Assembly: GCA_963828195.1 (NCBI GenBank)
Contig: CAWHDT010000005.1
Location: forward strand, 416,001 to 480,000
Length of the DNA: 64,000 nt
Origin: Candidatus Bathyarchaeota archaeon
GTDB lineage: Archaea > Thermoproteota > Bathyarchaeia > Bathyarchaeales > Bathycorpusculaceae
Direction: 5' to 3'
Below the pieces are notes generated by a model, which was given only the letters and a program-made list of their open reading frames with translations, did no database searches and was not told the DNA's origin. Position numbers and translations under genes: made by a program. Positions 23,597 to 48,255 of the stretch are shown one piece after another; positions within the stretch are counted from its first letter, which is position 1, and the number at the start of each line of letters is the position of its first letter.

Positions 23597-23646
23597 AGGA
23601 AAGGATTACGCCCTGTCGAGATATTATAAAACAAAGTCTAATCACA

Positions 23647-27861: not shown

Positions 27862-27972
27862 ATCTTCATACAATTCCGAACAAGCGGTTCTGTTGTTGGT
27901 TTCAGTTTGTGACAACATTATTTTATATTCTCTTTGAGGGATAATGGGTGACAAGAGCCAGCGGTTGTTTAT

Positions 27973-28070
27973 GCGGGTTCGGCTGCTAATAGAAGATAAG
28001 GTTCCCCCCCTCTTCTTTTTGCCTTATCTCTGTTAGCGCAAGGCTAAATCCGTTTAACACTAATTTTTGC
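27973..28070 (+). ncRNA. candidate structured ncRNA, copy A
   Basis: ~28-bp stem with 4-nt 3' bulge, GATAAGG/CCTTATC closing a pyrimidine loop; paralogue at 48150 with compensatory changes. Confidence 0.55.
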
Positions 28071-28249
28071 CCATTAACTCAACATTAGCGTGCGACCAAA
28101 AATTATATCTGTTGTTTCTGTGCCCGGCTCGTCCATGTAGCGTTTGAGGATTGCGCTTGTTCAGCTTTCCATTTCAGCATAACATCTTTGGAAATGGGTA
28201 AACTTAAAACTGCACCCCGCATATTTTTCTCTCTAACTGGTGCATTCAC

Positions 28250-29095
28250 TTGGCGTTTCTCGTAACCAAAGCAGACGGATCCAAACAATCGTTTAACAGA
28301 GAAAAAATCGTTCAGACATGCTTGAGAATGGGCGCAGACAGCTACATCGCTAATGAAGTTGCGGAGCGGGTTGAAAGAAGACTTTACGAAGGCATAACTA
28401 CAGAGGCGATTCTTAAGCTTATTTTCACGTATATGAGGAAATACCGGCCTGCTGTCAGCCACCTTTACGACTTAAAACGGGGTATAAGCCTGATGGAGCC
28501 CAAGCCGGAGTTTGAATTGTTCATACAGGTTTTGTTGGCGCACACCGGTTTTGAGGTCACGCCTAATCAGGTTCTCAGGGGGAAATGCGGGGAACATGAG
28601 GTGGATGGCATTGCAAGGAAGGACGGAGTCACCTACTTTGTTGAGGTTAAACATCATTTAAGCTACCACGCCTTAACGGGGCTGGATGAAAGCCGAATAG
28701 CTTGGGCAGTGCTCGAAGACGTTACAGACGCCTTCTCGCTTGGCTTAACAGACCTAAAAATTGACCGCGCCGTTATAGTCACCAACACCAGATACTCGGA
28801 ACATGCAATACGGTACGGCAAATGCAAAAACCTCATACAGATAGGATGGACTTCACCTGAACACTTCGGATTAAGAGAAGCCATTGAAAAAAACAAGTTA
28901 TACCCGTTAAGCTGCCTTAGAGGAGTAAGCGTTGAAGCAAGGCAGAGGCTGGTTAACTCGGGGATAGTTCTCATAAAACAGTTGCTTAACCAAGACAGAT
29001 TGACAATTGAAAGGAAAACAGGATTATCCCAAGCAACCGTGCTATCGATCATGGAAGAGGCCAGACACAGCGCAAACACGCTTTGGGACTTTTAG
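28250..29095 (+). CDS. ATP-cone plus Mrr-like PD-(D/E)XK nuclease domain protein
   Basis: VTKADGSKQSFNREKI ATP cone; FE...EVDGIA...VEVKHH. Confidence 0.88.
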   Translation: MAFLVTKADGSKQSFNREKIVQTCLRMGADSYIANEVAERVERRLYEGITTEAILKLIFTYMRKYRPAVSHLYDLKRGISLMEPKPEFELFIQVLLAHTGFEVTPNQVLRGKCGEHEVDGIARKDGVTYFVEVKHHLSYHALTGLDESRIAWAVLEDVTDAFSLGLTDLKIDRAVIVTNTRYSEHAIRYGKCKNLIQIGWTSPEHFGLREAIEKNKLYPLSCLRGVSVEARQRLVNSGIVLIKQLLNQDRLTIERKTGLSQATVLSIMEEARHSANTLWDF

Positions 29096-29187
29096 CCAGA
29101 CTACCGGACAATACTAGAGGTCTGTAATAAGTTAATATGGCGGACAAAGACTTTCCCGCTTGAAAATTCAAGGAACTTGCGGCGCGC

Positions 29188-29460
29188 TTAAGTTGAAGTT
29201 TTGATTGTTTCTTTTGAAGGCAGGATATTAAAGAAAGTTAAAACAGTAATTCCTGAAGGAGCTATAGTATATCTTTGAGTTATATTGCCTCTTGATAGCT
29301 CAGTGATTATCTCATTTTTTACTAAAAAATCAAGGTCTCTCTTCAAAGATGCCTTGTTAGGATTCTTTAAGAATAAACTCAATTGGTTGAATGTTTGGGG
29401 ACCATTCTCTGTGAGAAACTTTGAGATTTGTATGTAGTGCCCTAATTTGTTATTTAGCAT
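29188..29460 (-). CDS. winged-helix domain protein
   Basis: GPQTFNQL...LKRDLDFLVKNEII...YTIAPSG; start at ATG 29460 preferred. Confidence 0.65.
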   Translation of the reverse strand: MLNNKLGHYIQISKFLTENGPQTFNQLSLFLKNPNKASLKRDLDFLVKNEIITELSRGNITQRYTIAPSGITVLTFFNILPSKETIKTST

Positions 29461-29530
29461 ATTAGCCCAATACCGTAAAATGCGCTGTAATAAAAATATA
29501 AATCTTGCTATACAAGACTCAGACCGATGA

Positions 29531-29764
29531 CTAGCTTGACCCAGTAATTGATGTTTTTGCAATTTCAATAATGACTTTTTGAGTTAATTGCTCTTCTATT
29601 CTATCATGCTCAGCTTGTTTTTTTAAAGGATCCATTTCCTTTTGTACATGCAGTTTGGCATGTTCCTCAATACAATTAGCCATCTCTTTCAGGTCAGGAA
29701 TAATCAGAATTTCTTCGCCACATTCGCAAACAACTGTTAACATGTGCCTAAATTGTTTTTTCAT
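29531..29764 (-). CDS. small hypothetical protein, possible zinc binder (CxC...HxxxH)
   Basis: VCECGEEILIIPDL...IEEHAKLH. Confidence 0.7.
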   Translation of the reverse strand: MKKQFRHMLTVVCECGEEILIIPDLKEMANCIEEHAKLHVQKEMDPLKKQAEHDRIEEQLTQKVIIEIAKTSITGSS

Positions 29765-29974
29765 TTATTTAGTCATCGCTGGAACTGAGACTTGGACAGA
29801 GTGTGAATAATAAATGTTGTCTATTGCAGAGGATAAATAGGGCTACTGCGCAGCGCACTAGTGCTTAAAGTAAATTCAAACGTACAAAGTAAAATAGGGC
29901 GATGAAGACTTCCAAATAGAATTCTAAGGAAATCGAAAAAGAAGGATGTTGTAACAGCATTTGTTCATTAGACT

Positions 29975-30415
29975 TTAGAGTTTGTTCCGTTTTTCTTCTA
30001 TTGCTTTCTTTGCCAAAGCCACTGCATCTTCTCTTGTTTTGCCATATAATGCACCGATTTTGTCGGCATCCTCTTTGTCTACAGCTGCACCGCCTATCAT
30101 GACTGCAACTTTGCCCTTTAGTCCTTCAGCTTCTAAAGCAGAAATCAGTTTTAGAAGATTCTCTTTAGCGCCAGAAATACTGATAGTAACGACAATTATG
30201 TCAGGGTTTGCCTCTTTGACTTTTGAAATAAAATCTGCAACAGAAACATCTTTCCCTGCATCTACAGTTTTAAATTGGGCAGTTTTAAGTGATTTTCTAA
30301 CCATCTCTTTGGCAGTATCGATGATGTCAGGGTGAAGAGTGCCTATAACAATTGTTCCAATAGGATTTGCCGGTTCAGGCGGCTCTTTTTCTCTCATAGC
30401 TTTTAACCAAGACAT
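29975..30415 (-). CDS. stand-alone cobalamin-binding (B12-BD) domain protein
   Basis: IVIGTL.PDI..., VDAGKDVS, VMIGGAAV, IGA. Confidence 0.85.
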   Translation of the reverse strand: MSWLKAMREKEPPEPANPIGTIVIGTLHPDIIDTAKEMVRKSLKTAQFKTVDAGKDVSVADFISKVKEANPDIIVVTISISGAKENLLKLISALEAEGLKGKVAVMIGGAAVDKEDADKIGALYGKTREDAVALAKKAIEEKRNKL

Positions 30416-30580
30416 ACAAAAATCAATCCGTTATCTTCTAAATCGCTGTTTCAGAGATATTTGTGTTAAAACTGTATAATTAAGCATTTGCACATTCATG
30501 GAAAAGATACAAGTTTTGATGTACAGACTTTACCTGTATTTTCTGATGGATATGCAGAGTTAAAAAAAGAAAAACTGGGT

Positions 30581-30875
30581 TTAGTAGGGGATTGCTGCTT
30601 GGTTTCGTGTTTCCTCAACTATGGGGAGCACCTGTTTTAGTTCTTTGAAGTATTTCAGAACGGTTATTCCACGCTGCGTCACGGCGTAAACTACACGTTC
30701 TTTCCCTCAGTGTGCGTTGTTCGACTAAGCCTTGTTTTATGAGGAAGTCAAGGTACTCTTTTAGGACACAGCAGTTAACGTTTGCTTTATACATTACGTG
30801 AGTCAGCTTTAGGGGTCCTTTATGGGCAAGAACCGAGAGGATGTCAACATACATTTCTAGTTTGGAGCGTCTCAT
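30581..30875 (-). pseudogene. HTH_45-type winged-helix regulator with a 1-nt frameshift
   Basis: MRRSKLEMYVDIL...LTHVMYKANVN. Near 30705 an extra base; the alternative frame gives KERVVYAVTQRGITVLKYFKELKQVLPI...*. Confidence 0.8.
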
Positions 30876-31034
30876 ACTTGATCGTTCCACTATTAAGCTG
30901 AAATCAGAATTAACGATATGTGTGTCGCAAAAAACATAGCCATTTGGCTACGGCTTGTGTATTTCTGTTGTACACATCTACAAGTTGAATTTGCGGTTCA
31001 TAACGTTTATTTTTGGCCCAGCGTTGGAGAGGAT

Positions 31035-31199
31035 ATGTTGCAGCGGCAGAGCGCTAAAAAGCTGCATGCGCCTTCAGAGGGCTCGTTAAAGAGGGTTCTT
31101 GCCGATTCCGGATATTCCGAGGAAACAGCGTATAAGATCTGGAAATGGTATAACCCCAAAACCGATCTTGGTCCACTCAAAGAGGCTAATCAGCTTTAG
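31035..31199 (+). CDS. small hypothetical protein
   Basis: 54 aa after a GGAGAGG RBS (SGYSEETAYKIWKWY). Confidence 0.5.
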   Translation: MLQRQSAKKLHAPSEGSLKRVLADSGYSEETAYKIWKWYNPKTDLGPLKEANQL

Positions 31200-31359
31200 A
31201 ATTGAATAAACCTAATACCGCACCTTGCAGAGAAGTTTCAACTAAAAGGGCTTTTTCCACGCAGTTTATGGTGCAACTTAACATAAGGAAGTTTTTCCTA
31301 AAAATACAAACGCTTTTTAATGGTAGGGTTTGCTATTATGAACTAAAACGGGGTTAGTC

Positions 31360-31926
31360 ATGAACGCTGATAAGTTGGTTGTTGGTTTAGCTGGGATGCC
31401 TGGGGCAGGCAAATCGTTAGTTGTTGAAGCGGCAGTTGACTATGGTTACTCCATTGTTGTTATGGGCGACGTGGTCAGGGAGGAAACTAGGAAGCTTGGT
31501 TTGGATTTGACTCCGCAGAATGTGGGGAAAGTGATGCTTCAGCTGCGGGCAGATGGCGGAGTTGGCGTGGTCGCTCAGAAATGTATTCCTAAAATTGAAG
31601 CACAAACCGGCGGCAGGGTTCTTGTGGATGGTTTAAGAAGTCTATACGAGGTTGACGCGTTCAAAGCGTATTTTGCCAGGTTCAGCGTTGTCGCTGTGCA
31701 TGCTTCGCCTGAAGCAAGGTTTAATCGTCTTTTTAATCGCCGCCGAAGCGATGACCCAAGCGGATGGGCCGTTTTCCTTGATCGGGATACAAGGGAGCTT
31801 AGCGTTGGCTTGGGCAACGTGATAGCGTTGGCTGAGCAGATGATAGTTAACGATAATAGTGTTGAGGAGGTTAAGCCTAAAGTTGCGGAGGCTCTGAGGA
31901 GGATTGAGGCGAAATGGCTGAAGTAA
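31360..31926 (+). CDS. P-loop kinase, UPF0200 / dephospho-CoA kinase-like
   Basis: GMPGAGKS, MGDVVRE, DGLRS..E, R.RSDD. Confidence 0.88.
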   Translation: MNADKLVVGLAGMPGAGKSLVVEAAVDYGYSIVVMGDVVREETRKLGLDLTPQNVGKVMLQLRADGGVGVVAQKCIPKIEAQTGGRVLVDGLRSLYEVDAFKAYFARFSVVAVHASPEARFNRLFNRRRSDDPSGWAVFLDRDTRELSVGLGNVIALAEQMIVNDNSVEEVKPKVAEALRRIEAKWLK

Positions 31927-32318
31927 CTGTTCATGCCCAAGCTGAAGTTAACCCGACGGAGAGCGAAGAAAAGGTGAAGACGGCGGTCACTAACGTTTTA
32001 GGAAACGCCTCCATAACGGTTAAGCCGTCTGGCAGAGCAAACATTTTGACGGCTGAAGCTAAAGGACAAGATTCTCTTTTTAAACTGCGCAACATTCTGC
32101 GCAGTGACAGGATTCGTGATGCCTCCCGAAGGGCGCTTTTTCACAGTATAAGAGGGAACACCATTGGTTTCTGCTTAAACAAGCAAGTCGCGTTTGCGGG
32201 GCACGTCTCCTTTTCGGAAGAAACCGCGGAATCACCCTTAGGTCCTATACAGGTAACGATTGAAACTGACGATCCGCTGCAGCTTATCGAGTGGCTGGCA
32301 GAAAAAACCGAGAGATAG
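31914..32318 (+). CDS. UPF0201/DUF54 putative RNA-binding protein
   Basis: VNPTESEEKV, LNKQVAFAG, ESPLGPI. Confidence 0.88.
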   Translation: MAEVTVHAQAEVNPTESEEKVKTAVTNVLGNASITVKPSGRANILTAEAKGQDSLFKLRNILRSDRIRDASRRALFHSIRGNTIGFCLNKQVAFAGHVSFSEETAESPLGPIQVTIETDDPLQLIEWLAEKTER

Positions 32319-32330
32319 AAGGCACACGGC

Positions 32331-33347
32331 TTGTCTGCTAGGGCTCAGGTAACGAAAAACGGCGCGGTTTTGCTTGGCGACAGCGTCGCCTGCGACGCTT
32401 TCAGCGAGAGGCCTTTGCGGATTGTAACTCATGCACACGCGGACCATCTCGGTGGACTGCGGAAGAGTTTGAGTTGCTGTGAGAAGGTTTTGATGACTAA
32501 AGCCACCCGAGACCTCGCGGAGACGCTTGATGACTCGCTCAAGCTTCGGGATGCCGCAGTTGAAACGTTGGAGTACGGAAAAAGCATGAGGTTCGGCGAA
32601 GAGCAAATTACGCTGCTAAAGGCGGATCACATTTTGGGTGCAGCGCAGGTGCTTGTTGAGGATGCTGGCGGAATACGGGTTGCTTACAGCGGCGACTTCA
32701 GAATTGACGATACTCCGGTGGTTGAATGTGATGTTTTGGTTGTTGACGCAACTTATGGGAGCCCCTCTTTCAGGCGCTCTTTTGATGTTGATGTGCGGGA
32801 GCTTTTAGTCAGCATGATTGAGAAGCGTTTACGCGGCGGCACAGTGTATGTTTTTGGTTATCACGGCAAACTGCAGGAAATCATGCAGCTCCTCAGAAAC
32901 GCGGATGTTTCTGTGCCTTTTGTTATGCCGGAGCGGGTTTATCAAGTTACGAAGGTTTGCGAGCAACACGGGATGCAGTTGGGTTGCCTGTCCCTCTCAA
33001 CTGATGATGATGGGCGCGAACTTTTAGGCGGGAACCTTCCATGCGTCGCGTTTTACCACATGAATTCCCGCGGGTACGTTGGCTTGAATAATTCTCGCAT
33101 CTGCGTCAGCGGCTGGGAATTCAATTCGGCGTGCAGGCAGATTGGCGACCGAGAATACTTAGTTGCCTTAAGCGACCACTCAGATTTTGACGGGGTACTA
33201 GAATATGTTAAACGCACAAAAGCCAAAAAAGTCATCACAGACAATTACCGCGGGGGACATGGCACAATTTTAGCTAAAGAAATTCATAAGCGCCTCGGCG
33301 TTTCGGCAGTGGCAATGCCAAGAGCCAAAGGGCAAACCACACTGTAA
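32331..33347 (+). CDS. metallo-beta-lactamase fold nuclease (beta-CASP-like)
   Basis: THAHADH, HILGAAQ, YSGD, DATYG, LSDHSDF. Confidence 0.88.
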   Translation: MSARAQVTKNGAVLLGDSVACDAFSERPLRIVTHAHADHLGGLRKSLSCCEKVLMTKATRDLAETLDDSLKLRDAAVETLEYGKSMRFGEEQITLLKADHILGAAQVLVEDAGGIRVAYSGDFRIDDTPVVECDVLVVDATYGSPSFRRSFDVDVRELLVSMIEKRLRGGTVYVFGYHGKLQEIMQLLRNADVSVPFVMPERVYQVTKVCEQHGMQLGCLSLSTDDDGRELLGGNLPCVAFYHMNSRGYVGLNNSRICVSGWEFNSACRQIGDREYLVALSDHSDFDGVLEYVKRTKAKKVITDNYRGGHGTILAKEIHKRLGVSAVAMPRAKGQTTL

Positions 33348-33413
33348 GCCACCAAGTTTGCCTTAAAGCTTAAAAGCGAAAAATCAGACTAATCATTCTC
33401 AACTTACAGGTAA

Positions 33414-34700
33414 ATGAAGGAAGGAAATATGGCTAAAACATCAGTTATTTCAGGTTTCTACAAGCTTTCGGCGAAAGAGCGGTTAGCGATAGTGAAGGAT
33501 TTTGCAGGCTTAACCGACGAGGAAGTCCACTTGCTTGAGAACACGGGTTCAGTGCCCTTCGAACTGGTTGATCACATGGTGGAAAACGTTATCGGCGTCC
33601 TCCCTGAACCTTTGGGTCTTGCAGTCAACTTTCAAATTAACGGTAAAGACTATTTGATTCCGATGGCTACGGAGGAGCCAAGCGTTATCGCCGCTGCCTG
33701 CTACGCTGCTAAAATGGTTCGCGACGGCGGAGGATTCCACACCAGCAGCACAACGCCGATTATGATTGGTCAAGTTCAAGTCGTCGGCTTAAAAGACCCC
33801 AAGCTTGCTCAAAAGAAAGTTTTAGATGCAAAAGCTGAAATCCTAAAGAAAGCAAACGACCAAGATCCAGTTTTGAACTCTTTCGGCGGCGGAGCCAAAG
33901 ATTTGGGTGCGAAAATCATCGATACGTCGATGGGGCAAATGTTGATTGTTGAATTGTATGTTGATTGCCGTGACGCTATGGGCGGCAACGCGGTTAACAC
34001 TATGGCTGAAGCAGTAGCGCCGATGCTTGAGCAGCTAACAGGCGGACACGTTTACCTGCGCATCATCTCTAACTTAGCGACTAAACGGATGGCGAAAGCA
34101 TGGTGCACCGTACCCAAAGAATCTCTTGGCGGAGAAGCAGCTGTGGACGGCATCGCTTACGCCTCGGCTTTTGCGGAAGCTGACCCGTACCGCGCTGCAA
34201 CCCACAACAAAGGCGCAATGAACGGCATAATCGCTGTGGTTTTGGCAACAGGCAACGACCACCGCGCCATCGAAGCCGGAGGACACGCCTACGCTGCGCT
34301 GAATGGACAATACACGAGCTTTTCAAAGTGGACAAAAAACAAAAACGGAGACTTAGAAGGCGTAATCGAGTTGCCGATGGCGGTAGGCTTAATCGGCGGC
34401 GCAGTAAAAACCCATCCCATAGCAAGAATCGCAATGAAAATCTTAAACGTCAAAACAGCCAACGAATTCGCAGAAGTCCTGGCGGCAGTCGGCTTAGCCC
34501 AAAACCTAGGCGCCCTACGAGCGCTGGCAAACGAAGGAATCCAACGCGGCCACATGAACCTGCACGCAAGAAACATAGCCATCACCGCAGGCGCCAAAGA
34601 CGACATGGTTGACAAGGTTGCAGCACAGATGGTTAAAGAACGCAAAGTCCGAGTGGACAGAGCCAAAGAAATCCTAGAAGAACTAACAAAAAAACAATAA
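33414..34700 (+). CDS. mvaA: HMG-CoA reductase, class II
   Basis: ENVIG, PMATEEPSV, DAMGGN, ATHNKG, EGIQRGHM.LH. Confidence 0.95.
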   Translation: MKEGNMAKTSVISGFYKLSAKERLAIVKDFAGLTDEEVHLLENTGSVPFELVDHMVENVIGVLPEPLGLAVNFQINGKDYLIPMATEEPSVIAAACYAAKMVRDGGGFHTSSTTPIMIGQVQVVGLKDPKLAQKKVLDAKAEILKKANDQDPVLNSFGGGAKDLGAKIIDTSMGQMLIVELYVDCRDAMGGNAVNTMAEAVAPMLEQLTGGHVYLRIISNLATKRMAKAWCTVPKESLGGEAAVDGIAYASAFAEADPYRAATHNKGAMNGIIAVVLATGNDHRAIEAGGHAYAALNGQYTSFSKWTKNKNGDLEGVIELPMAVGLIGGAVKTHPIARIAMKILNVKTANEFAEVLAAVGLAQNLGALRALANEGIQRGHMNLHARNIAITAGAKDDMVDKVAAQMVKERKVRVDRAKEILEELTKKQ

Positions 34701-34800
34701 CCCCCTTTCTTTTCCACTAGCCTGATTAGTCGAGTACCAGAAACCAGAAGGCGGGTTACAACCAACATACCAGCCTCCTAAAACGTAAAATACTTTGTAA

Positions 34801-35176
34801 TTAGACGATTCTTATGTTGTCTTTGCCAACATTGGCGAGTTTTTGATCCCTCGTTAACAATACTTCATCGTGTGCCAGTGAAATGCCCGCGATAAGCAAA
34901 TCGTTCTCATTGACCGTTCTTCCAGCATCCTGTAATTTTTCAAAAAGGAGGGCGGCTTCTTTGGCGGCGGCTCTGTCGAAAGAGTAAACCGCTGCTCCAG
35001 ACAGGAACCTTTCAGCCGCTTGTTTCTTTATTTTAACCTTGTGCCTGAGCAATTCATACTCAGTTATCGTTGTGGTTTTGACGTCTTCTTTCGTGGAGAG
35101 TTCTCTCATTAAAGCAACAATTTTTTGGTCGCCAGTCAAAGAAATCTATTATGACGCTGGTATCGAGAAGTGTCAC
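34801..35176 (-). pseudogene. vapC: VapC toxin with a 1-nt frameshift near the 5' end
   Basis: GTG at 35176 gives MTLLDTSVIIDF, then an extra T before LTGDQKI...DLLIAG..LLTRD; span is 376 nt. Confidence 0.8.
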
Positions 35177-35400
35177 TCAAATGTCCGTCCGTAATTTGCT
35201 TCTCTTTCTGCGGCTATTTGGGCTTTCAACCGCTCAAGTTCTTCTTTATCATCCTTTAAGATGCCCGCTAAGCTCATAATATCAAATTTTTCTTCTTTGT
35301 GACAGAGGCTTTCTTTAATTACCTGCGAAAAACTCTTCTTGCCTTTTCGTTTTAAGAGCAGTTCGTAGACTTCGTTTGAGACTGAAATCTGTCTTGCCAT
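35173..35400 (-). CDS. VapB-family antitoxin
   Basis: RQISVSNEVYELL...KSFSQVI; overlaps the vapC start. Confidence 0.88.
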   Translation of the reverse strand: MARQISVSNEVYELLLKRKGKKSFSQVIKESLCHKEEKFDIMSLAGILKDDKEELERLKAQIAAEREANYGRTFE

Positions 35401-35488
35401 AACTCCACTGATACATAAATGTATACATGCTTCCGATAAATCTTCCCGGATGAAGCCTCCACCTAAAGGGAGAATAAAATTAACTCTT

Positions 35489-35905: not shown

Positions 35906-36002
35906 AACTCCACCGACTAAACAGTTAATTCAGGCTCTTGGGTAGCAATAAGTTTTTTGAAATGGACATTTGGGGATTTGCCGAAAAAAAGAAAAGGGTG
36001 GT

Positions 36003-40055: not shown

Positions 40056-40640
40056 TTAACTTCCTCTAACGGAGGCTATCAACCGCGTTTTTCTTATTGC
40101 TTTTCTGATGGGCGGCGGCAACCCTAGCTTAATGACATCAGCGGTTTTCCATAGCCCATAAAGCCCCGGGGGCGCGGTGCTGGCGTCGATGATTTTCAAG
40201 TTACCGTTCACGACTCTTATGTTATCGCAGGTGATATCCAGCAAACCGTATTGGTAAGCTATGGCTCTAAGCTGAGCAATGTCTTCAGCTGGAACATCTG
40301 CTTCAACGCCGTATTCCTGCAGAAGACAATACTTGGTGTGCCAAAATAGCCTCGCGAAATAGGCATGTCTGATGCTCGGAGGCATTTTCTTGTAAGCTTC
40401 GTGGTCACGCTCTATTGAATCGGATCTCCCAACCTTTAACGCCAACTCATGGCTCTTATGCCGCAGAAAGAAAACAAGTTTATGCAAACCATAATTGCTC
40501 AAATGAGCCTCAGGAAAAATCGCTGTCACAATCTGCTCCAAATCTTTCATTGGGGCAAAACTGCCATTTTCTTTTTTTATGTACTCATCTATTGAGGCGT
40601 CCACAAGCTTGGCTTTTTCATGCAGCGATTTGAATTTCAC
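40056..40640 (-). CDS. hypothetical protein with a minimal protein-kinase-like pattern
   Basis: LALKV, LLQEY, DITCDNI, KIID. Confidence 0.6.
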   Translation of the reverse strand: MKFKSLHEKAKLVDASIDEYIKKENGSFAPMKDLEQIVTAIFPEAHLSNYGLHKLVFFLRHKSHELALKVGRSDSIERDHEAYKKMPPSIRHAYFARLFWHTKYCLLQEYGVEADVPAEDIAQLRAIAYQYGLLDITCDNIRVVNGNLKIIDASTAPPGLYGLWKTADVIKLGLPPPIRKAIRKTRLIASVRGS

Positions 40641-40761
40641 GCGTAACTCAAAGTTCTTGACGTAATTTTAGATATGTGACTGCTAAAACACAGCCACAAC
40701 GCAAAGACATGGCGTTACTCAGATTTGTAAAAACTCTTTTTGTTGCCACCAGATGTGGTTT

Positions 40762-41325
40762 TCAATGAAAGGTTTTGCCTTCCTCAAGCATATCAATAAT
40801 ATACTTTATCTTCGCACGCCTACTCTCAGCGCTTTTTGCGTTTTCAATCCTGAAAATAATTGCGTACCTGTTTAACTTGTTTATTGTTTTAAAGAAAGCT
40901 TTAGCTTTCAGATTTTTGTTTAGCTCTTTTACAAAATCTTCAGGCAACAGCGCATTTTTCTGTGGTTGATATGCCCTGTCCCACCTGCCATCTCGTTTTG
41001 CCTCTTCTATTTGTTTCATACCCTCAGGCTTCATTCTTCCTGCTCTGACTAGTTTTTCCGCGAGCTCCGTATTACGCTTTGACCATATGCTGTTTGGTCT
41101 TCGTGGAACATACTTTGCAATCCACGATTTATCATCACATGGTTTAGCCTGACCCGTTATCCAACCGTAGGAAAGGGCCACTTCAAGTGCTTCAAAGGTA
41201 GTTACTGACGCTACTCCAGAATCCTTCTTAAAATGGCGTATCCAAATGCCTTCAGAACTTGGATGGTTATCAGATAGCCAGTCTTCCCATTCTTTAGCCG
41301 ATTCGAACGTTAAAATATCGTCCAT
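40762..41325 (-). CDS. YdeI/OmpD-associated family protein
   Basis: EWEDWL, GWI.G, PRRPNSIWSKRN, AKRDGRW. Confidence 0.9.
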   Translation of the reverse strand: MDDILTFESAKEWEDWLSDNHPSSEGIWIRHFKKDSGVASVTTFEALEVALSYGWITGQAKPCDDKSWIAKYVPRRPNSIWSKRNTELAEKLVRAGRMKPEGMKQIEEAKRDGRWDRAYQPQKNALLPEDFVKELNKNLKAKAFFKTINKLNRYAIIFRIENAKSAESRRAKIKYIIDMLEEGKTFH

Positions 41326-41676
41326 ACATTAATCATGATTTGGCTTTAAAATATTAAGGTGCTTGACCAAACTCAAAGAGAAAGGTTTTGCGTAATTATA
41401 TAGTTAAATCGGTATATTGGAAAAATTTAAAATTCCAAGTTTCAAATTGTGATGAAGCCTTTTGCTGTTTGATTTCAGCTGTTATTTGCAACTCATCTAA
41501 AACTACTTCCTGCATAAGGTCTACGCGTTAATTTTCAAGTAGAGATAGCCATGTTCACCACCGTTTCATTCATTATTTTGGAAAGAAAAAAATTACCATA
41601 ATAAGTCAAAGCTAAATACGGTTTAATCCTTTAATATTTAAGCTGAAACCTCAATAAGAATAATGGTGAGAGTTAA

Positions 41677-41976
41677 ATGCAAAAGCTTGAAGACATAAGA
41701 GCCAAACTGGAAAAGCTCAAGCCAGTCCTAAAAGAGCGATACCAAGTGGAAACCATAGGGTTCTTTGGTTCCTATGCCCGCGGAGAGCAAAACAAAAAAA
41801 GCGACGTGGATGTTCTTGTGGAGTTTTCTCAGCCCAACACGATTGACCTCTTAGACTTCATTGAGCTTGAAGAATTTTTAAGCAAAAAACTCGGGATCAA
41901 AGTAGATCTAGTTACGAAAAATGCTCTTAAGCCAATGATTAAAGACCAGATATTGAAAGAGACGATTTATGCTTGA
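41677..41976 (+). CDS. minimal nucleotidyltransferase (MNT) antitoxin
   Basis: FGSYARGEQ...SDVDVLV. Confidence 0.93.
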   Translation: MQKLEDIRAKLEKLKPVLKERYQVETIGFFGSYARGEQNKKSDVDVLVEFSQPNTIDLLDFIELEEFLSKKLGIKVDLVTKNALKPMIKDQILKETIYA

Positions 41977-42323
41977 AGCGAACCTATCGGCTTTATCTAA
42001 ACGATATTTTGGAAGCCATAGAAAGAATAGAAAACTATGTAGAAGGAAGGACTTTCGAGGAATTCTCGAAGAATACTCTTGTTATAGATGCCGTGGTGAG
42101 GAATTTTGAAATTATCGGCGAAGCAACAAAACACATACCTTCAGAAGTAAAGTCAGAACATCCGCTTATTAAGTGGAAAGAAATGGCGGGGATGCGAGAT
42201 AAATTGGCTCACGAATATTTTGGGGTAAACATCGAGATTCTGTGGAAAACAGCAAAGAACCGTTTGCCTGTTTTAAAGCCCTTAATCGAAGAGCTTTCAA
42301 AAAATAGTGAAGAAACAATGTAA
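41973..42323 (+). CDS. HEPN (DUF86) toxin
   Basis: EIIGEA and RDKLAHEY (RX4HXY). Confidence 0.93.
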   Translation: MKRTYRLYLNDILEAIERIENYVEGRTFEEFSKNTLVIDAVVRNFEIIGEATKHIPSEVKSEHPLIKWKEMAGMRDKLAHEYFGVNIEILWKTAKNRLPVLKPLIEELSKNSEETM

Positions 42324-42371
42324 GGACAATAATTGGATTATAGTTCTGGTTTAATCATTCGAAATGACTGT

Positions 42372-43541
42372 TTAATGTTTCGCATAATAATCTGCTACAG
42401 CCTTAAACGACTCTTTAGGCTCCCACGGCAGATCCGGATATGTCACTCCGTGCTCGCCCAGCGGACCTGAAAAAACATCCAGAACGTGAGGGTCGAGGTC
42501 CACCCCCAATATTTCCTTAGCCCCGCGAATGGCCTGTCTCCTGAACTCCGCCTCAGTTTCTGCCTCGGGGAAGCTCTTCACCAAGCTAAAGTTCGCCATG
42601 TCGGCATCGTACCTGGGGTCCGAGCGGTATGGGGAGTTAGGAACCACGAAGGTGTGCACGAAGGCACCTTCAACCCCCGCTGCGTCAAGCACCCCCAACT
42701 GATCAGCTATCTCCCGTGCCTGGAGCTCCTCGTCACGGATGTAGTGCCCGTCAGCTCGGGGCGGAACATGCGCCATATTCAAGAACAACTTAGGAAACTT
42801 CTGGTTTGGCCCGAGGAGACCTTCCATCATCCCGAAGGTTATCATGAAGCCGCTGCCGCCGAGCAGGTCCGCGCCCCGGAAAGTGCAGCACCCGAACTCT
42901 CCTATGACGACAGGCTTGCCGAATGCTTTGTACTTGCTTATCATCTGCCCATAGGAGTCTTTGATCCGCGCGTCCCTGTAATGGTCTACTCCGACGAAAT
43001 CGAACGGTTTCCAGTTGACAGCTTCGAACGGTACGGAGAAGTAGGTCAGCGGACCACGGAACAACTTCGCGGCCTCGCTCAGACTCGACAGGTACGCATT
43101 AAGCGGGCTGTTATGCTTCCCAGCCATTATATCTCCCCAGAACGAGGGACGCAACATCCGGTCAAAGACGCTCTTGCCCTCGATAATCCCCTGAGAGAAG
43201 AGGGTCAGCTCAGAGCCCACACTGAAGACCAGCTTTCCAGGCCATTTTTGCCTCAACTCTTCTGCCGCCGCAGCAGCTTTAGTGATGTATTGAAGTGTTT
43301 CCTCTTGGCTTTTGTCCCACATTTCTGGCGAAAGCCACACTTCCAGACCCTGTTTTAAAGCGTCCTCGCCAGCAATCATCAGCCGGTCGATGTCGAGGCC
43401 ACAGATCCTTACGGCATTGCAGTGCAGGTCATTCTTGATGATCTCAAGTTCGCGGTTCACAACTCGTGCATCAAAGTTAGGGCGCCAATTAACTCCAAGC
43501 AAGACACGCCCCACATCATAGCAAACTCCTTTTCGTTTCAT
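42372..43541 (-). CDS. glycoside-hydrolase-like TIM-barrel protein
   Basis: GVCYDVG, LHCNAVRI, GSE, VDHY, GEFGCC; visibly GC-richer than its neighbours. Confidence 0.7.
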   Translation of the reverse strand: MKRKGVCYDVGRVLLGVNWRPNFDARVVNRELEIIKNDLHCNAVRICGLDIDRLMIAGEDALKQGLEVWLSPEMWDKSQEETLQYITKAAAAAEELRQKWPGKLVFSVGSELTLFSQGIIEGKSVFDRMLRPSFWGDIMAGKHNSPLNAYLSSLSEAAKLFRGPLTYFSVPFEAVNWKPFDFVGVDHYRDARIKDSYGQMISKYKAFGKPVVIGEFGCCTFRGADLLGGSGFMITFGMMEGLLGPNQKFPKLFLNMAHVPPRADGHYIRDEELQAREIADQLGVLDAAGVEGAFVHTFVVPNSPYRSDPRYDADMANFSLVKSFPEAETEAEFRRQAIRGAKEILGVDLDPHVLDVFSGPLGEHGVTYPDLPWEPKESFKAVADYYAKH

Positions 43542-43542
43542 A

Positions 43543-44160
43543 TCAGCTGCTCTCCTTCGTGTCGGGTTTGAGCATCCGCAAAATAATTTTTGCTTCAGGA
43601 AAATGCTTTTTTGCGTCCTCAGGGTTAAGCATGGTGGCTCTTTTCATTAATCCATTAATGCACGCCATTAGAGCAACCATTAACTGGTCAGGATCGTCAT
43701 TGGTGATTTCGCCCGTAGCTTGACCTTCAACGATAAGTTGACGAATAATGTCTTGGATAATTTTGCCATTCTTTAGAACAAGTTGTCGTAGTTCGCTAGG
43801 CGTTTTGTCGTCAGCTAAAACTTGGCTAAAAATTTGGGAAAATCCAGGGTTAGTTTTGTTTTCTGCTAATATGTATGAAATCAAGAGTGCAAGGCGCGTT
43901 CCTGGCGTCCCTTGTATTTGCTTAATACGTTCGGCTGGTCCGCCGCTGGATTCTGTCGCCTGCTTTATCAGGATGGTGAAGATTTCTTCTTTGCTTGCGA
44001 AGTACCGATACGCTAATCCTTGGCTGACGCCGGCTTCGGAAGCTACATCAGCTATTGTGGCGGCGCTGCCTTTTCTTGCAAAGACGTTTCGGGCTGCTGT
44101 GAGGATTTTTGCTCGCTGTTCTTCGCGGATTTGTTGGTTTGTTTCTTCTGTTCTCGGCAT
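43543..44160 (-). CDS. TetR/AcrR transcriptional regulator
   Basis: TIADVASEAGVSQGLAYRYFASKEE. Confidence 0.93.
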   Translation of the reverse strand: MPRTEETNQQIREEQRAKILTAARNVFARKGSAATIADVASEAGVSQGLAYRYFASKEEIFTILIKQATESSGGPAERIKQIQGTPGTRLALLISYILAENKTNPGFSQIFSQVLADDKTPSELRQLVLKNGKIIQDIIRQLIVEGQATGEITNDDPDQLMVALMACINGLMKRATMLNPEDAKKHFPEAKIILRMLKPDTKESS

Positions 44161-44265
44161 TTTTCAATGACCTTGCAGATGAATGAATTGTTCATTCATC
44201 TTATAAGGGTATCGCAACTTCAAAAATCAAAAAAAGAAACAAAACAGGAACTCAAGAGCCCAAAA

Positions 44266-44538
44266 CTAAGCAGGGTACACCCAATGCACTGACCTGTGCT
44301 GTCGGGTTCCCCAAATTACCCACATTAAACCGATCAGTAACCCAGCGATGGCCAATGAAACTATCGTCACTATAACGTTCTGAAATAGGCTGTAGCCTCT
44401 TGACCAGAAGAGGGCGTAGAAAAGGATGAATAAAAGCCAAGCTATTACGCCGACGAATGTAGATATGATGGGTGCGATGGGGCCTGCGTGCCTCCATTGA
44501 GGTTGGGAAGGTTCGGCGCTGGAAACATGATTTGCCAA
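44266..44538 (-). CDS. small two-TM membrane protein
   Basis: Two hydrophobic helices joined by YSLFQN. Confidence 0.7.
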   Translation of the reverse strand: MANHVSSAEPSQPQWRHAGPIAPIISTFVGVIAWLLFILFYALFWSRGYSLFQNVIVTIVSLAIAGLLIGLMWVIWGTRQHRSVHWVYPA

Positions 44539-44609
44539 TTTCGTTCACCTAAGGGTAAATGTCGATTTTTCGCTTATAAAACCATCGTTGGCTAAACCCT
44601 TCATCGCGA

Positions 44610-45614
44610 TTATACTGATTTGCTTTTTCTTAATGTCTCAACTGCTTTTTCCGCCCACTGATAATCTCTCCAAAACGCTCTGCCTACAGCCACCAAATCA
44701 ACTTTTCCCTCACTCACCAACCTATCTGCGAGTTCCGCCTCCCTGATTCCGCCCACACCAATTACGGGAACCATCACCGCCTTCTTGACCTCAATTGCCT
44801 GCGGAACAAAATAGCCCTTAATTTGACGCAGCTGCCTTGGTTCACTTCCGCACATGCCCCCTGACACGTCAACGATGTCCACGTCGGATTGCTCAAGCTT
44901 CTTTGCAAAAATAACGGAATCCTCAATATGAGTTCCATTAGGAGCCAAATCGTCAGAGCCTAATCTGTAGAGTAAAAGTTTGCCCTTGAGCCGTTCATGC
45001 ACCTTTTCAACCACAAGCAGGGGAAAACGCACCCGATTATCCAAAGAACCCCCGTATTTGTCATCTCGCTTGTTAAAAAGGGGCGAGTAGAACTGGTTAA
45101 GCAAGTAGCCGTGAGCTCCATGAACCTCAACCCCGTCAAACCCAGCCTTAACCGCACGTTCGGCAGCCAAAGCAAAGTCGTCGGCTAACGCTTCTATTTC
45201 GCTTATTTCTATCATTCGCGATTTCTCTCTGGGGGAGGGACCGGCGGGTTCGGCGCCGATGACTTTTTTGTTTGTAACCGCGCCGGCATGAGATATCTGT
45301 ATAACCGCAGTAGCATCGATCTCATGTAAAGCCTTTGCAAGCTTCTCAAGACCACCAATTAACGAGTCATCGTGGATTCCAAGTTGTTTTGGACCGATCT
45401 TTCCAGTCGGAGAAACATAAGCGTGCTCAACAATAGTTAAGCCTAAAGCAGCGGCACGTCGAACGTAAAAGTTGATCAGTTTGGTGGTTACGGCGCCTTC
45501 AAAATTTGCCCTGCCAGTCTGCATAGGAGGCAAAACAATGCGGTTCCGAAGAGTATACCCCTTCACTTTCAAAGGATCAATCAGCCCAGGCAAACACGAC
45601 ACCGTTTCAATCAA
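44610..45614 (-). CDS. NADH:flavin oxidoreductase (Old Yellow Enzyme family)
   Basis: LRNRIVLPPM, GFDGVEVHGAHGYLL, R.DKYGGS. Confidence 0.95.
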   Translation of the reverse strand: MIETVSCLPGLIDPLKVKGYTLRNRIVLPPMQTGRANFEGAVTTKLINFYVRRAAALGLTIVEHAYVSPTGKIGPKQLGIHDDSLIGGLEKLAKALHEIDATAVIQISHAGAVTNKKVIGAEPAGPSPREKSRMIEISEIEALADDFALAAERAVKAGFDGVEVHGAHGYLLNQFYSPLFNKRDDKYGGSLDNRVRFPLLVVEKVHERLKGKLLLYRLGSDDLAPNGTHIEDSVIFAKKLEQSDVDIVDVSGGMCGSEPRQLRQIKGYFVPQAIEVKKAVMVPVIGVGGIREAELADRLVSEGKVDLVAVGRAFWRDYQWAEKAVETLRKSKSV

Positions 45615-45756
45615 TGGGTGATACAGCGCTATAATAACATATCAATTAACCTGAATTTTTCTGTCACCCGTTGGGCAGTTAAATTGAATAAGCAAAACAA
45701 CGTGTCTTTGCTCAAAAAGTTTATTTTGCTTGTCAGTTTAATGATGAGTGATTGTT

Positions 45757-46524
45757 ATGGATATTCTCGAGGTTAAAGATTTGAGCGTTAAGGTTGAGGG
45801 AAAGCATATTCTCGAAGGAGTAACTTTCAACCTTAAGTGTGGCGAAAGCCATATTCTTTTCGGGCCCAATGGTTCTGGAAAAACAACCCTCATAAGCGCG
45901 CTTATGGGTCTTCCAACTTACGAAGCAACTGGCGGAACAATAAAGTTCGATGGAACCGACATCACAGCTAAGACTGTAGAGGAAAGAGCAAAGCTCGGGA
46001 TGGCTGTCAGCTTCCAAAATCCTCCTGAAATCACGGGTGTAAAGCTCGTGGACCTGTTGAAGCTTTGTCTTGGCAAGAAAACGGACGATTCCTTCAGCGC
46101 GGAGGAACAGCGGCTTATTGAAGTTTTCAGGTTAACCGACTTCTTAAACAGGGACCTCAACGTTGGATTCTCGGGCGGCGAAAGAAAACGCTCTGAAATT
46201 CTTCAGTTGATTTTCCTCAAGCCTAAGCTGCTGCTTCTGGATGAGCCAGACTCGGGTGTGGATGTGGAAAGCCTGAAGTTGATTGCCACTGAAATCGAGC
46301 GTTACGTAGAACAAAGCAAAAGCTCAGCGTTGATTATAACTCACAAAGGCGATATTTTGGAATATATTAAAGCGAAGTATGGATGCATCCTTTTAGATGG
46401 AAAATTTCACTGCTTTACTCATCCCATGAGCATCTATGAGGACATCAAAAAAGTGGGTTACGAAGAATGCGTAGCCTGCAGAAGAAGAACAGTAGGAGGC
46501 TGGAAAAATGACAGAAGAGAGTGA
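45757..46524 (+). CDS. sufC: Fe-S assembly ABC ATPase (SufC/SmsC)
   Basis: GPNGSGKT, FSGGERKR, DEPDSGVD, C-terminal CxxC. Confidence 0.92.
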   Translation: MDILEVKDLSVKVEGKHILEGVTFNLKCGESHILFGPNGSGKTTLISALMGLPTYEATGGTIKFDGTDITAKTVEERAKLGMAVSFQNPPEITGVKLVDLLKLCLGKKTDDSFSAEEQRLIEVFRLTDFLNRDLNVGFSGGERKRSEILQLIFLKPKLLLLDEPDSGVDVESLKLIATEIERYVEQSKSSALIITHKGDILEYIKAKYGCILLDGKFHCFTHPMSIYEDIKKVGYEECVACRRRTVGGWKNDRRE

Positions 46525-47632
46525 ATTAACAAGACTTCCGCATAAAATTCTTGAAGAAGCACAAAGGGCCGGCATTGAATCAGACGACAAGAATCGTTCA
46601 GGCACCTTTTTGCACTTAGACCAAACAACCGTGCAGGCTACAGTCAACGAGCTTTTTGAAGGAAAAATCGAGCTTATGGACATTAAGGCGGCGCTGAAAA
46701 AATACTCCTGGCTTAGCGATTACATGTGGAAAGTAGTTGACAAGAATAAAGACGAGTACACCAAAAAGGTAGCTGAAGACTACAGCGGAGGTTACTTCAT
46801 TCGGATTCTCCCAGGCGCTGAAGTCGCGTTTCCTCTCCAGTCATGCCTCCTTATAACGCAGAAAAATCTTGAACAAAAAGTTCACAACATAATAATAGCA
46901 GAGGAAAACTCAAATGCGCACATAATCACCAGCTGCCTCCAACACTCAACCGTTGCAAGCGCATCGCATCTGGGCATATCCGAAATCTACGTTAAAAAAG
47001 GAGCAATGCTCAACTTCACCATGATTCACCAATGGAGCGAGAACACGCTGGTGCGACCCCGAAGCGCCGCGGAAGTAGCTGACAAAGCCACGTTCGTATC
47101 CAACTACGTGTGTATGCGTCCTGTTAGGGATATTCAAATGTATCCTGCCGCATTCTGCAAAGGTGAGGATTCGCGGGTTAGCTTCAACAGCATCTTGTAT
47201 GGGCACAAAAATTCGCAGCTAGACATTGGATCAAAAGCTGTTCTGACGGGGAAAGGAAGCAAAGCGGAGATGGTTAGCCGCGCCATCTCGCGTGAAGGCT
47301 CAAAAATGATAATCAGAGGTATGATAGAAGGTGACAGTTCAGACTGCAAGGGTCATTTGGAATGCCGCGGCTTGCTGATGGATGACGAATCATTTATGCA
47401 GTCTATACCGGAGCTAATCGCAAAAAGGAAGGGTGTAGAGATCACCCATGAGGCAGCGGTTGGGAAAATCTCAGAAAAAGAAATCACCTATCTCATGACA
47501 CGCAAACTGTCGCGTGACCAAGCAGTTTCAGTGATTATACGCGGCTTCATGGATGTAGGCATACTTGGCTTGCCAGATGCATTAAACGCTGAGATTAAGA
47601 AAATAGTGGAAGCCTCTACGGAAAACACATAG
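46508..47632 (+). CDS. sufB: SufB/SufD-family Fe-S scaffold (SmsB-like)
   Basis: PLQSC, GHLECRGL, THEAAVGKI, IIRGF. Confidence 0.9.
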   Translation: MTEESELTRLPHKILEEAQRAGIESDDKNRSGTFLHLDQTTVQATVNELFEGKIELMDIKAALKKYSWLSDYMWKVVDKNKDEYTKKVAEDYSGGYFIRILPGAEVAFPLQSCLLITQKNLEQKVHNIIIAEENSNAHIITSCLQHSTVASASHLGISEIYVKKGAMLNFTMIHQWSENTLVRPRSAAEVADKATFVSNYVCMRPVRDIQMYPAAFCKGEDSRVSFNSILYGHKNSQLDIGSKAVLTGKGSKAEMVSRAISREGSKMIIRGMIEGDSSDCKGHLECRGLLMDDESFMQSIPELIAKRKGVEITHEAAVGKISEKEITYLMTRKLSRDQAVSVIIRGFMDVGILGLPDALNAEIKKIVEASTENT

Positions 47633-47786
47633 CGCACAAAGGTATGAAGTAAACCGAAACGGGCAAAGCGCAGAAGCCTGCCCACCCATATTTTATTCCC
47701 TAAAGTGGCCGCTAACGTTTGTTGTTCTTGGTTGAGACAACAAGTTTTCATATAGTTTAACTGGCATAATAAGCAAGTTGACTTTC

Positions 47787-47936
47787 ATGATTTCGTGTTG
47801 CCACAGAGTGCATTGCTCAAAATGCGGAAATGAGCTTACTAAACCCGACAAAAAACTGGAAAACTCCGTCTTCTACGTAGCGATTTACACATGCAATAAG
47901 TGTGGAACATCAGTTAAGTATTCTAAATCTTTTTAA
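47787..47936 (+). CDS. 49-aa zinc-ribbon microprotein (below the ORF-track cutoff)
   Basis: MISCCHRVHCSKCGNEL...YTCNKCGTSVKYSKSF*: two CxxCG knuckles. Confidence 0.6.
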   Translation: MISCCHRVHCSKCGNELTKPDKKLENSVFYVAIYTCNKCGTSVKYSKSF

Positions 47937-48149
47937 CTATTTTGAATCATGTTTCACTAACTCGTGTTCTTGGCTGTAAAAACCGGGGTTCCATAAATAA
48001 CAGGGTTTCGGGCACCAAATAAATAGATTAAGGGGCGAGGACTCAGAAGCTAGCAATTTTGTGCTTTGTTGCTTCAGGTTGCGACAACATTAATTTTTAT
48101 TCCATGAAAACAATGATTTGATGAACACAGAAGGGCGCACCCATTTTAG

Positions 48150-48255
48150 GTGGGTCTGGCTGCTAAAACCGATAAGGTTTTTCTTGTCTCCTTCAAGTTT
48201 TTTCCTTATCGATTTCAGCACTCGGCTAGACCCACTTAACCAAACTTTTTGCCTA
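48150..48255 (+). ncRNA. candidate structured ncRNA, copy B
   Basis: Same stem/bulge/loop architecture and flanks as 27973-28070. Confidence 0.55.

Follow-up and report, generated by a model that had tools for sequence, protein, structure and literature searches.

The stretch of DNA analysed here (64 kb of contig CAWHDT010000005.1 from a Candidatus Bathyarchaeota archaeon; hereafter the window) is part of an archaeal chromosome with 43.6% G+C. Its genes include an exosome/proteasome/SBDS/L37ae cluster, Nre, HMG-CoA reductase, SufC/SufBD, and toxin-antitoxin pairs, and two of its intergenic regions contain related hairpin-forming elements, termed copy A and copy B. A co-directional Mrr/ATP-cone gene lies ~190 nt downstream of copy A, and a convergent tRNA-Asp gene (48306-48380, minus strand) lies downstream of copy B. 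A first-pass annotation of the window had proposed that the two copies are paralogous hairpins with a conserved promoter-like box and form a new archaeal noncoding RNA family. We verified both copies in the window, in position and in sequence, and our analysis indicates that they very probably belong to a real family of structured RNA genes.

Copies A and B were aligned over 238 columns with a mean column identity of 76%. The islands of identity were the box, the TATA-like tract, GGCTGCTAA, GATAAGG, CCTTATC, GGCT, TTAAC, and TTTTTGCC. The stretch from the TATA-like tract to the stem did not align between the copies, which agrees with the earlier description of the sequence between box and stem as unconserved, and the apical loop did not align either.

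Relatives were sought in representative genomes, one per species, using the hairpin core only as the query. The search pattern was GGCTGCTRA, a short gap, GATAAGG, a loop gap, and CCTTATC; an exact match to these 23 bases was demanded, so that the locus and genome counts are lower bounds. The scan recovered 17 loci, of which 15 were located in 13 metagenome-assembled genomes (MAGs) of Bathyarchaeota/Bathyarchaeia and two in bacteria. The bacterial matches had none of the other features described below and scored 12.5 bits or nothing with a covariance model of the family, and we therefore rejected them as chance matches. The hairpin of the fifteenth archaeal locus (L003) runs off its sequence stretch, and this locus was left out of the hairpin counts. 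All 14 untruncated archaeal matches had a complementary basal stem and outer stem, the 3' bulge, the second GGCT, and the YTAAC tail, and all 15 archaeal matches had the box and the TATA-like tract 59-79 nt 5' of GGCTGCT. None of these features (box, TATA tract, outer and basal stems, bulge, and YTAAC tail) was in the search pattern. The proposal of a new family with its own promoter and two paralogues was thus backed independently by comparison with 15 Bathyarchaeia loci bearing a promoter that had not been queried, and the family is common to at least 13 other MAGs of Bathyarchaeia, the group in which the first-pass annotation had suggested searching. Two MAGs gave two loci each and the window also has two, indicating more than one family copy per genome; the paralogous loci found number at least three. 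With the covariance model, no third copy was detected in the window (filters off) and no extra copies were detected within the 17 scanned loci.

An alignment of the 16 complete hairpins (A3; copies A and B plus the 14 untruncated archaeal matches) supported one long imperfect hairpin of ~95-105 nt. From the outside inwards, it contains an outer helix GUU(K)../..(Y)UAAC, a basal stem of 7-8 bp, a 1x1 mismatch, an invariant 4-bp GGCU/GGCU helix, a bulge of 4 nt (RCNN) in the 3' strand, a helix of the GCUAAUA type that contains a small bulge or internal loop, a GAUAAGG/CCUUAUC helix, and an apical loop of 17-26 nt. The bulge had been described for both copies and was present in both, as GCAA in copy A and ACTC in copy B. 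The TTAAC motif said to follow the stem was also present, but it belongs to the stem and not to the flank. In all 16 folded members the upstream GUU.. pairs with the downstream ..UAAC, which makes the stem longer than first described, and the hairpins consequently span ~27966-28059 (copy A) and ~48146-48239 (copy B). Stem pairing was also evident from folding against dinucleotide shuffles (200 per hairpin). The minimum free energy of the plus strand was -33.4 kcal/mol for copy A (z -6.2) and -38.5 kcal/mol for copy B (z -8.2), and 0/200 shuffles equalled either value.

Pairing across the family was evaluated on a 28-pair structure with 445 pair cells, using shuffles and alignments with the 3' partners slid by 1-3 columns as controls. 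Standard pairs occupied 90.8% of the cells, compared to 31-50% when the partners were slid. Two-sided changes were found at 8 pairs, compared to 4.3 +/- 1.1 in shuffles (0/500 reached 8) and 0-2 in the slid controls. For example, 8 sequences have C-G and 5 have U-A at column 20/95, and at column 29/82 a single G-C stands beside 14 A-U pairs. Since the core words were fixed by the scan and the sequences are related, the covariation evidence is moderate and not decisive.

The two strands differed clearly. Covariance-model scores were 79-108 bits in the sense orientation and 17-37 bits in the antisense orientation; copy A scored 98.1 bits on the plus strand and 16.9 on the minus strand, and copy B scored 87.8 and 34.7, respectively. 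A rough hand tally of the pair-type tables gave ~54 G-U cells and ~8 A-C cells. The G-U pairs that had been claimed on the plus strand work only there in copy A, because the fold of its minus strand was indistinguishable from shuffles (z -0.8). Judged from the G-U pairs and the model scores, the plus strand is the RNA strand. At both ends of the GGCU/GGCU helix (columns 90 and 93), the wobble base was kept in 16/16 sequences though a Watson-Crick partner would also pair, which points to a recognition element rather than a mere stem.

The promoter-like box noted at both loci, TTCAGKTTGYGACAACATTA, was found only at 27901 and 48073 when the whole window was searched with up to 3 mismatches. The chance expectation was 0.04 matches and 0/100 shuffles reached two; the box was found neither upstream of the tRNA-Asp gene nor elsewhere in the window. 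The TATA-like tract is invariant or nearly so in all 16 aligned members, and the inverted-repeat box region can be read as a putative transcription-factor site plus transcription factor B recognition element (BRE). In each of the 17 copies used for composition counts (A, B, and the 15 archaeal loci), a pyrimidine-to-purine step occurs 18-23 nt past the TATA tract, and the leader begins there. The first 12 leader nucleotides are 83% purine on average, and the predicted leader length is 17-37 nt across the family. Most members end in an A-U(4-5)-GCC tail. With the oligo-T tract read as a terminator, the predicted start sites would give RNAs of ~120-130 nt for copy A (~27950-28068) and copy B (~48120-48250), which is a reasonable estimate. 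The features of both copies are listed in Table 1.

Table 1. Coordinates of the features of copies A and B in the window.
Feature	Position	Strand	Remarks
Copy A, upstream conserved region	27871..27920	+	Inverted repeat TGTTGT..ACAACA plus box 27901-27920
Copy A, TATA-like tract TTTTATATT	27921..27929	+	60 nt 5' of GGCTGCT
Copy A, predicted purine-rich 5' leader	27950..27965	+	Start ~27950 estimated from TATA spacing
Copy A, hairpin	27966..28059	+	Folds, pair counts, covariance model
Copy A, outer helix and basal stem	27973-27979 with 28047-28053 (basal stem)	+	Outer helix GUU../..AAC; C-A mismatch after the basal stem
Copy A, inner helices	27981-27984 with 28042-28045 (GGCU/GGCU)	+	Invariant GGCU/GGCU; GCUAAUAGA helix; GAUAAGG/CCUUAUC
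Copy A, apical loop	28002..28021	+	20 nt, 95% pyrimidine, T5-G at end
Copy A, 4-nt 3'-strand bulge GCAA	28038..28041	+	Bulge at the same place in 16/16 members
Copy A, 3' tail	28060..28086	+	AC-TAA-TTTTT-GCC, then CATTAACTCAACATT
Copy A, oligo-T, read as terminator	28064-28068	+	
Copy B, upstream conserved region	48053..48092	+	Contains box 48073-48092
Copy B, TATA-like tract ATTTTTATT	48093..48101	+	
Copy B, predicted leader	48120..48145	+	Start ~48120 estimated
Copy B, hairpin	48146..48239	+	Basal stem 48150-48157 with 48228-48235
Copy B, inner helices	48158-48161 with 48224-48227 (GGCU); 48171-48177 with 48204-48210 (GAUAAGG/CCUUAUC)	+	
Copy B, bulge ACTC	48220-48223	+	
Copy B, apical loop	48178..48203	+	26 nt, 85% pyrimidine, has CUCC, T6 at end
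Copy B, 3' tail	48240..48253	+	TTTTT 48246-48250, GCC

Conservation profiles delimited the unit. In type A, the block corresponding to window positions 27871-28086 showed 90% identity among copy A, L005, and L006, while the flanks showed 41% upstream and 34% beyond 28086; the unit is therefore conserved as a block between unconserved flanks. A profile of four diverse type C species gave 0.82 for the promoter, 0.62 from TATA to start, 0.51 for the leader, 0.97 for the 5' arm, 0.62 for the loop, 0.87 for the 3' arm, 0.56 for the tail, and 0.28 for the next 60 nt. The arms and the promoter are thus most constrained, with leader, loop, and tail freer but above background. Pyrimidines make up 82% of the loop on average across the 17 copies, and the 3' side of the loop is rich in U. 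Loop and leader differ between paralogues and are partly kept among orthologues, and the type C loop core CUU(U)GCCCA is kept in 6/6 species.

Several repeated or complementary words were observed around the hairpin. CAACATTA, which ends the promoter box of copy A (27913-27920), recurs at the 3' end of the copy A block (28080-28087) and is kept there in the orthologues L005 and L006 as CAACATTA and CAACATTG; it may represent a second regulator half-site or the trace of a tandem duplication. U5-G-CC also occurs twice in copy A, at the junction of the loop and the 3' arm (28016-28022) and in the tail (28064-28071). The U5 motifs of loop and tail may be sites for Sm-like proteins or partial terminators. 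Three further pairings were tried and rejected. A leader-loop pseudoknot looked plausible in several copies by complementarity, but the energies of the own pairs were no better than those of shuffled loops (mean z +0.17, 17 copies), leaving leader-loop complementarity at the level of composition only. A leader-tail helix extending the rod had a mean z of -0.21 over 16 copies; the sole exception was L017 (6300-6450), whose leader AGAAGCUAAGA is strongly complementary to its tail UUUUAGCUUCU (-17 kcal/mol, z -4.4). Pairing of TAATGGGT (27942-27949) with GCCCATTA (28068-28075) involves a segment upstream of the predicted start and is broken in L006.

The elements were compared with known RNA classes. 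Against the 4227 models of Rfam 15, a check that the first-pass annotation had named, no copy matched any family at its gathering threshold. The window gave only the tRNA-Asp gene, and a single tRNA, located in L017, was all that came from the 15 homologous loci. When copy A, copy B, and L010 were scanned permissively, the results were matches to microRNA-precursor models of 12-23 bits, compared to thresholds of 52-99, and other sub-threshold noise; these weak matches reflect generic hairpin shape. For tRNA and transfer-messenger RNA, ARAGORN and Rfam found only the tRNA-Asp gene, on the opposite strand downstream of copy B. No H/ACA pocket was seen, since the folds contain only the 1x1 mismatch, the 4-nt bulge, and bulges of 1-3 nt and have no large internal loop. 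An ACA occurs in the 12-nt tail of 11/16 members and is lacking in 5, and the preceding AAC is paired in 16/16 folds. As read from the alignment, the upper stem (GAUAAGG/CCUUAUC with its pyrimidine loop) has no kink-turn (K-turn) or K-loop, as no GA/AG lies beside a 3-nt bulge. Of the boxes that mark C/D box sRNAs, a C box (RUGAUGA) was found in 0/16 predicted transcripts and the D-box word CUGA in 1/16. The Y_RNA model gave no match at E up to 10, and neither the 69 proteins of the window nor the 54 flanking ones contained a TROVE domain. A bulge-helix-bulge motif has two 3-nt bulges on opposite strands with a 4-bp helix between them; the GGCU/GGCU helix, though also of 4 bp, does not conform, being flanked by a 4-nt bulge at one end only and by a 1x1 mismatch at the other. 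As far as sequence comparison goes, the family is lineage-specific in soil and peat Bathyarchaeia, previously undescribed, and outside every family tested.

The genomic contexts of the loci were diverse. By our reading of the coordinates, the downstream gene is co-directional in ~8 loci (68-341 nt away) and convergent in ~7, and outside syntenic groups the RNA has no recurrent neighbouring protein family, which removed a conserved neighbouring protein as a candidate partner. The type C loci (L004, L007, L009, L010, L012, L015) have the order S2 - Memo - [RNA] - mevalonate kinase - UbiD-like, with extra ORFs (open reading frames) inserted in some species; the Memo and mevalonate kinase flanks are shared by five species, and L009 keeps the Memo side only. 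In type C, the mevalonate kinase start codon is preceded by a separate TATA-like tract, downstream of the RNA. The mixed gene orientation and the unrelated neighbours indicate a stand-alone RNA gene rather than a 5' leader or a mobile element, and we consider it likely that the RNA is stand-alone and acts in trans.

The invariant irregular helix, the selected wobbles, and the freer single-stranded parts suggest a handle for a protein, and the loop, which differs between paralogues and keeps its core among orthologues, fits a specificity element. According to the mechanism that we propose, each gene would consist of a dedicated conserved promoter (inverted-repeat regulator box and BRE/TATA), a purine leader, the hairpin, and an oligo-U tail. 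The wobble-closed GGCU/GGCU helix, the 4-nt bulge next to it, and the GCUAAUA and GAUAAGG helices would together serve as the handle for a dedicated RNA-binding protein. The pyrimidine loop, perhaps together with the purine leader, would be the specificity element of each sibling, most likely by base-pairing to other RNAs at purine-rich (Shine-Dalgarno-like) or pyrimidine-rich sites, and a single regulator would control all siblings through the promoter box that they share. Taken as a whole, mechanism included, a Bathyarchaeia-specific family of sibling small RNAs (sRNAs) is our best explanation, with a probability of roughly 0.5. The combination of a handle with a variable specificity element is held tentatively, and action of the loop specifically as an anti-Shine-Dalgarno element is doubtful. 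Still less likely, the RNA could be one half of a novel guide-type ribonucleoprotein (RNP) of Bathyarchaeia, in which a protein would sit on the GGCU/GGCU helix and the bulge, the hypervariable loop, and possibly the leader, would differ between siblings and program the bound nucleic acid, and all siblings would be co-induced via the box. Such an RNP, with a constant handle and a variable guide, would be comparable in principle to C/D RNPs or CRISPR RNPs (crRNPs), though unrelated to them.

Pairing of the loops was tested against the 58 translation-start regions within the window. GAGG is the most enriched 4-mer 5' of start codons (7-fold), a Shine-Dalgarno-like word precedes 21/58 window ORFs, and many loops contain CCUC or CUCC. 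The copy B loop (48178-48203) can form 21 pairs in three helices (-21.1 kcal/mol) with the start of the sufBD-like gene (46483-46512), 1.6 kb upstream, covering its Shine-Dalgarno sequence AGGAGG and its AUG (46508); ~0.05% of random 30-nt windows do as well. The homologous loci from other species contain no suf genes. Local antisense targets were rejected: within its own locus, each loop has as many complementary 9-11-nt words as expected by chance.

Several observations weigh against the sibling-sRNA explanation. In 6% of cases, shuffled loops reached the value of the copy B-sufBD pairing across the 58 start regions. The best match of the copy A loop was ordinary, being equalled by 85% of shuffled loops, and in general neither loop preferred the start regions to coding controls (Mann-Whitney p 0.27 for A and 0.75 for B). 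Base-pairing sRNAs usually keep their seed as the best-conserved part, and here loop and leader are the least conserved transcribed parts of the type C profile, with loop length drifting among close orthologues (18, 18, 20, 23 nt). No candidate binding protein was found, and none is encoded beside the RNA among the flanking genes. The transcript start site and 3' end are predictions, and a T5-6 run lies inside the loop in 8/17 copies; in many archaea such T runs are expected to terminate transcription, which would occur within the hairpin. Finally, the core helices were fixed by the scan, and the covariation comes mainly from the basal and middle stems.

An alternative is a protein-titrating or scaffold RNA without pairing targets, like Y RNA, 6S, or RsmX/Y/Z, which would sequester or assemble proteins through the invariant stem and possibly the loop and the U-tract (e.g., an Sm-like protein on the A-U5-G tail). 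Consistent with this, conservation peaks in the double-stranded arms and not in the single-stranded parts, the loops of paralogues keep their composition (pyrimidine-rich with a U-rich 3' side) and not their sequence while varying in length, and the wobble pairs are invariant in 16/16. The tail present in most members, A-U(4-5)-G-C-C, resembles the consensus of an Sm site, and several paralogues share one promoter type, as Y and Rsm RNAs are known to do. However, the type C loop core, kept in 6/6 species, exceeds what a composition rule needs, the failure to find a binding protein, also beside the RNA, counts against this explanation as well, and the Y_RNA and 6S models of Rfam gave no match at E up to 10. 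We regard titration as possible but unlikely.

The RNA could alternatively regulate the downstream gene in cis (such as mevalonate kinase in type C) as its 5' leader or attenuator, with termination at T runs setting the read-through. The co-directional genes and the presence of T runs both in the loop and past the hairpin would suit this function. It is very unlikely given the convergent downstream genes of ~7 loci, including the tRNA-Asp gene after copy B, the lack of relationship among the downstream genes, and the separate TATA-like tract of the mevalonate kinase gene.

Slightly less probable again is a precursor hairpin processed into small duplex-derived RNAs in a microRNA-like manner, for instance Argonaute-type guides, with the arms as the product. 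The saddle-shaped profile (arms 0.87-0.97, loop 0.62), the 21-nt length of the nearly invariant 5'-arm stretch GGCUGCUAAUAGAAGAUAAGG, and the fact that the sole weak Rfam similarities were to microRNA precursors are in line with such processing, but the arm invariance was partly imposed by the search pattern and the matches of 12-23 bits were far under the thresholds. No dicing enzyme or Argonaute was found among the window proteins, and archaea are not known to have a hairpin-dicing pathway.

A function at the DNA level, as a miniature inverted-repeat transposable element (MITE) or other mobile repeat, an attC-like recombination site, or a protein-binding palindrome, is improbable in the extreme, even though the elements are imperfect palindromes with GTTRRRY / RYYYAAC-like ends and occur in several copies per genome. 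The G-U wobbles function on one strand and the minus strand of copy A does not fold; compensating changes distinguish the paralogues, which are not near-identical; and the type C element occupies a fixed chromosomal position in six species. The first-pass annotation had raised the possibility of a MITE, and we found no terminal inverted repeats or target-site duplications at the ends of the block (27871-28086), with just two copies, 76% alike, in 64 kb. No similarity was found in plasmid or phage collections. An attC site has RYYYAAC at its 5' end and GTTRRRY at its 3' end and occurs in cassette arrays near an integron integrase; here the motif order is reversed (GTTRRRY-like 5', RYYYAAC-like 3'), the copies are single and 20 kb apart rather than in cassette arrays, and no integrase was found among the window proteins. 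The 20 kb between the copies were also considered as a repeat-bounded mobile island, which was rejected since they hold housekeeping genes such as HMG-CoA reductase, Nre, and SufBD.

Least probable of all is a small protein-coding gene (leader peptide or toxin) overlapping the hairpin: an SD-like GAGG plus ATG is present in some leaders, and L004 and L010 would give 15-residue peptides ending in ..W.VWLLI, but the ORF is destroyed in the close orthologues L007 (no ATG), L015 (ATG then TGA), and L012 (10-nt deletion, other frame), the loops, at 17-26 nt, do not have lengths in multiples of three, and across the 16 sequences neither strand offers a frame that stays consistently open through the loop.

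Other genes near the RNA were recorded. Just upstream of copy B lies an ORF for a four-cysteine zinc ribbon (47778-47936, plus strand; 52 aa) with weak DUF7479/DUF7836 matches, and L008 has a homologue (2403-2651, minus strand) in the equivalent place immediately upstream of its RNA, the two sharing 56% identity over 39 residues. Based on this shared small ORF, the copy B and L008 loci are probably orthologous. Homologous ORFs of 212-214 aa without a family match adjoin the RNA in L012 (2127-2771, plus strand) and L016 (930-1568, plus strand), loci that are otherwise non-syntenic; one is convergent downstream and the other co-directional upstream. A further homologous ORF of 217-259 aa is located between Memo and the type C RNA in L007 (314-1015), L009 (5651-6304), and L015 (871-1650), always on the minus strand; it has no convincing family, and it is divergent from the RNA and thus shares its upstream region.

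In the window, a defence-island-like gene run (19422-29095) lies left of and around copy A. It includes a DEAD/Helicase_C protein with an MrfA Zn-binding (DUF1998-type) domain (19422-21695), an RNase_H_2/PolB-exo-like protein (21683-22981), a PLD-family nuclease (23759-25267), and an N6/N4 DNA methylase (25360-26598), all on the minus strand, and the Mrr-like endonuclease with ATP-cone (28250-29095, plus strand), a combination that we take to be reminiscent of DISARM-type systems. The toxin-antitoxin-type genes are an MNT nucleotidyltransferase and HepT pair and two PIN-domain proteins (41677-42323; 18558-18947; 34801-35139). The region 4061-8093 (minus strand) encodes proteasome alpha, SBDS, Rrp4, two RNase PH-type subunits (Rrp41/Rrp42-like), and L37ae, which form a classic archaeal cluster.

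Soils, peat, and sediments harbour Bathyarchaeia in abundance; these archaea are uncultured, and our literature search returned nothing on regulatory or structured RNAs specific to them. The family offers a concrete entry to RNA-based regulation in this group, as it is recognizable by sequence alone and can be sought directly in existing peat and soil metatranscriptomes. The promoter box defines a candidate regulon, and the invariant helix could be used as bait for the partner protein. The family would also add an archaeal entry to RNA databases, where lineage-specific archaeal families are few.

Among known systems, archaeal H/ACA sRNAs resemble the family in their single-hairpin architecture and in the ACA found in the tail of 11/16 members, but the family has no pseudouridylation pocket, K-turn, or K-loop, its tail AAC is paired in all 16 members, and no H/ACA family of Rfam was matched. 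In Methanosarcina mazei, according to a review (PMC5867862), sRNA154 and sRNA41 are stand-alone sRNAs of ~100-150 nt whose stem-loops mask ribosome-binding sites, including sites within polycistronic mRNAs. The loops described here are similarly C/U-rich and often contain CCUC or CUCC, in a genome with GAGG-type Shine-Dalgarno sequences; their anti-Shine-Dalgarno action is putative. Unlike the M. mazei sRNAs, with which they share no sequence or model similarity, the RNAs described here form one long hairpin with invariant modules and have paralogues with a shared box.

Y RNAs, which associate with Ro60, are ~100 nt long and have a conserved bulged helix as the protein site, a variable pyrimidine-rich loop, and a 3' oligo-U. 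The Bathyarchaeia family shares a bulged conserved stem, a pyrimidine-rich variable loop, an oligo-U tail, and paralogues with the same kind of promoter; it differs in its 17-37-nt 5' leader, in matching no Y_RNA model, and in having no Ro/TROVE gene near any copy. Qrr1-5 and RsmX/Y/Z are bacterial sibling sRNAs, present in several copies per genome, with a shared promoter that has an upstream palindromic site and with a common scaffold. They belong to another domain of life and use another promoter type, and Qrr RNAs keep a single-stranded seed whereas the family described here keeps its stem. Like them, the Bathyarchaeia RNAs are paralogous siblings that have the same promoter architecture and are built on a common structural scaffold.

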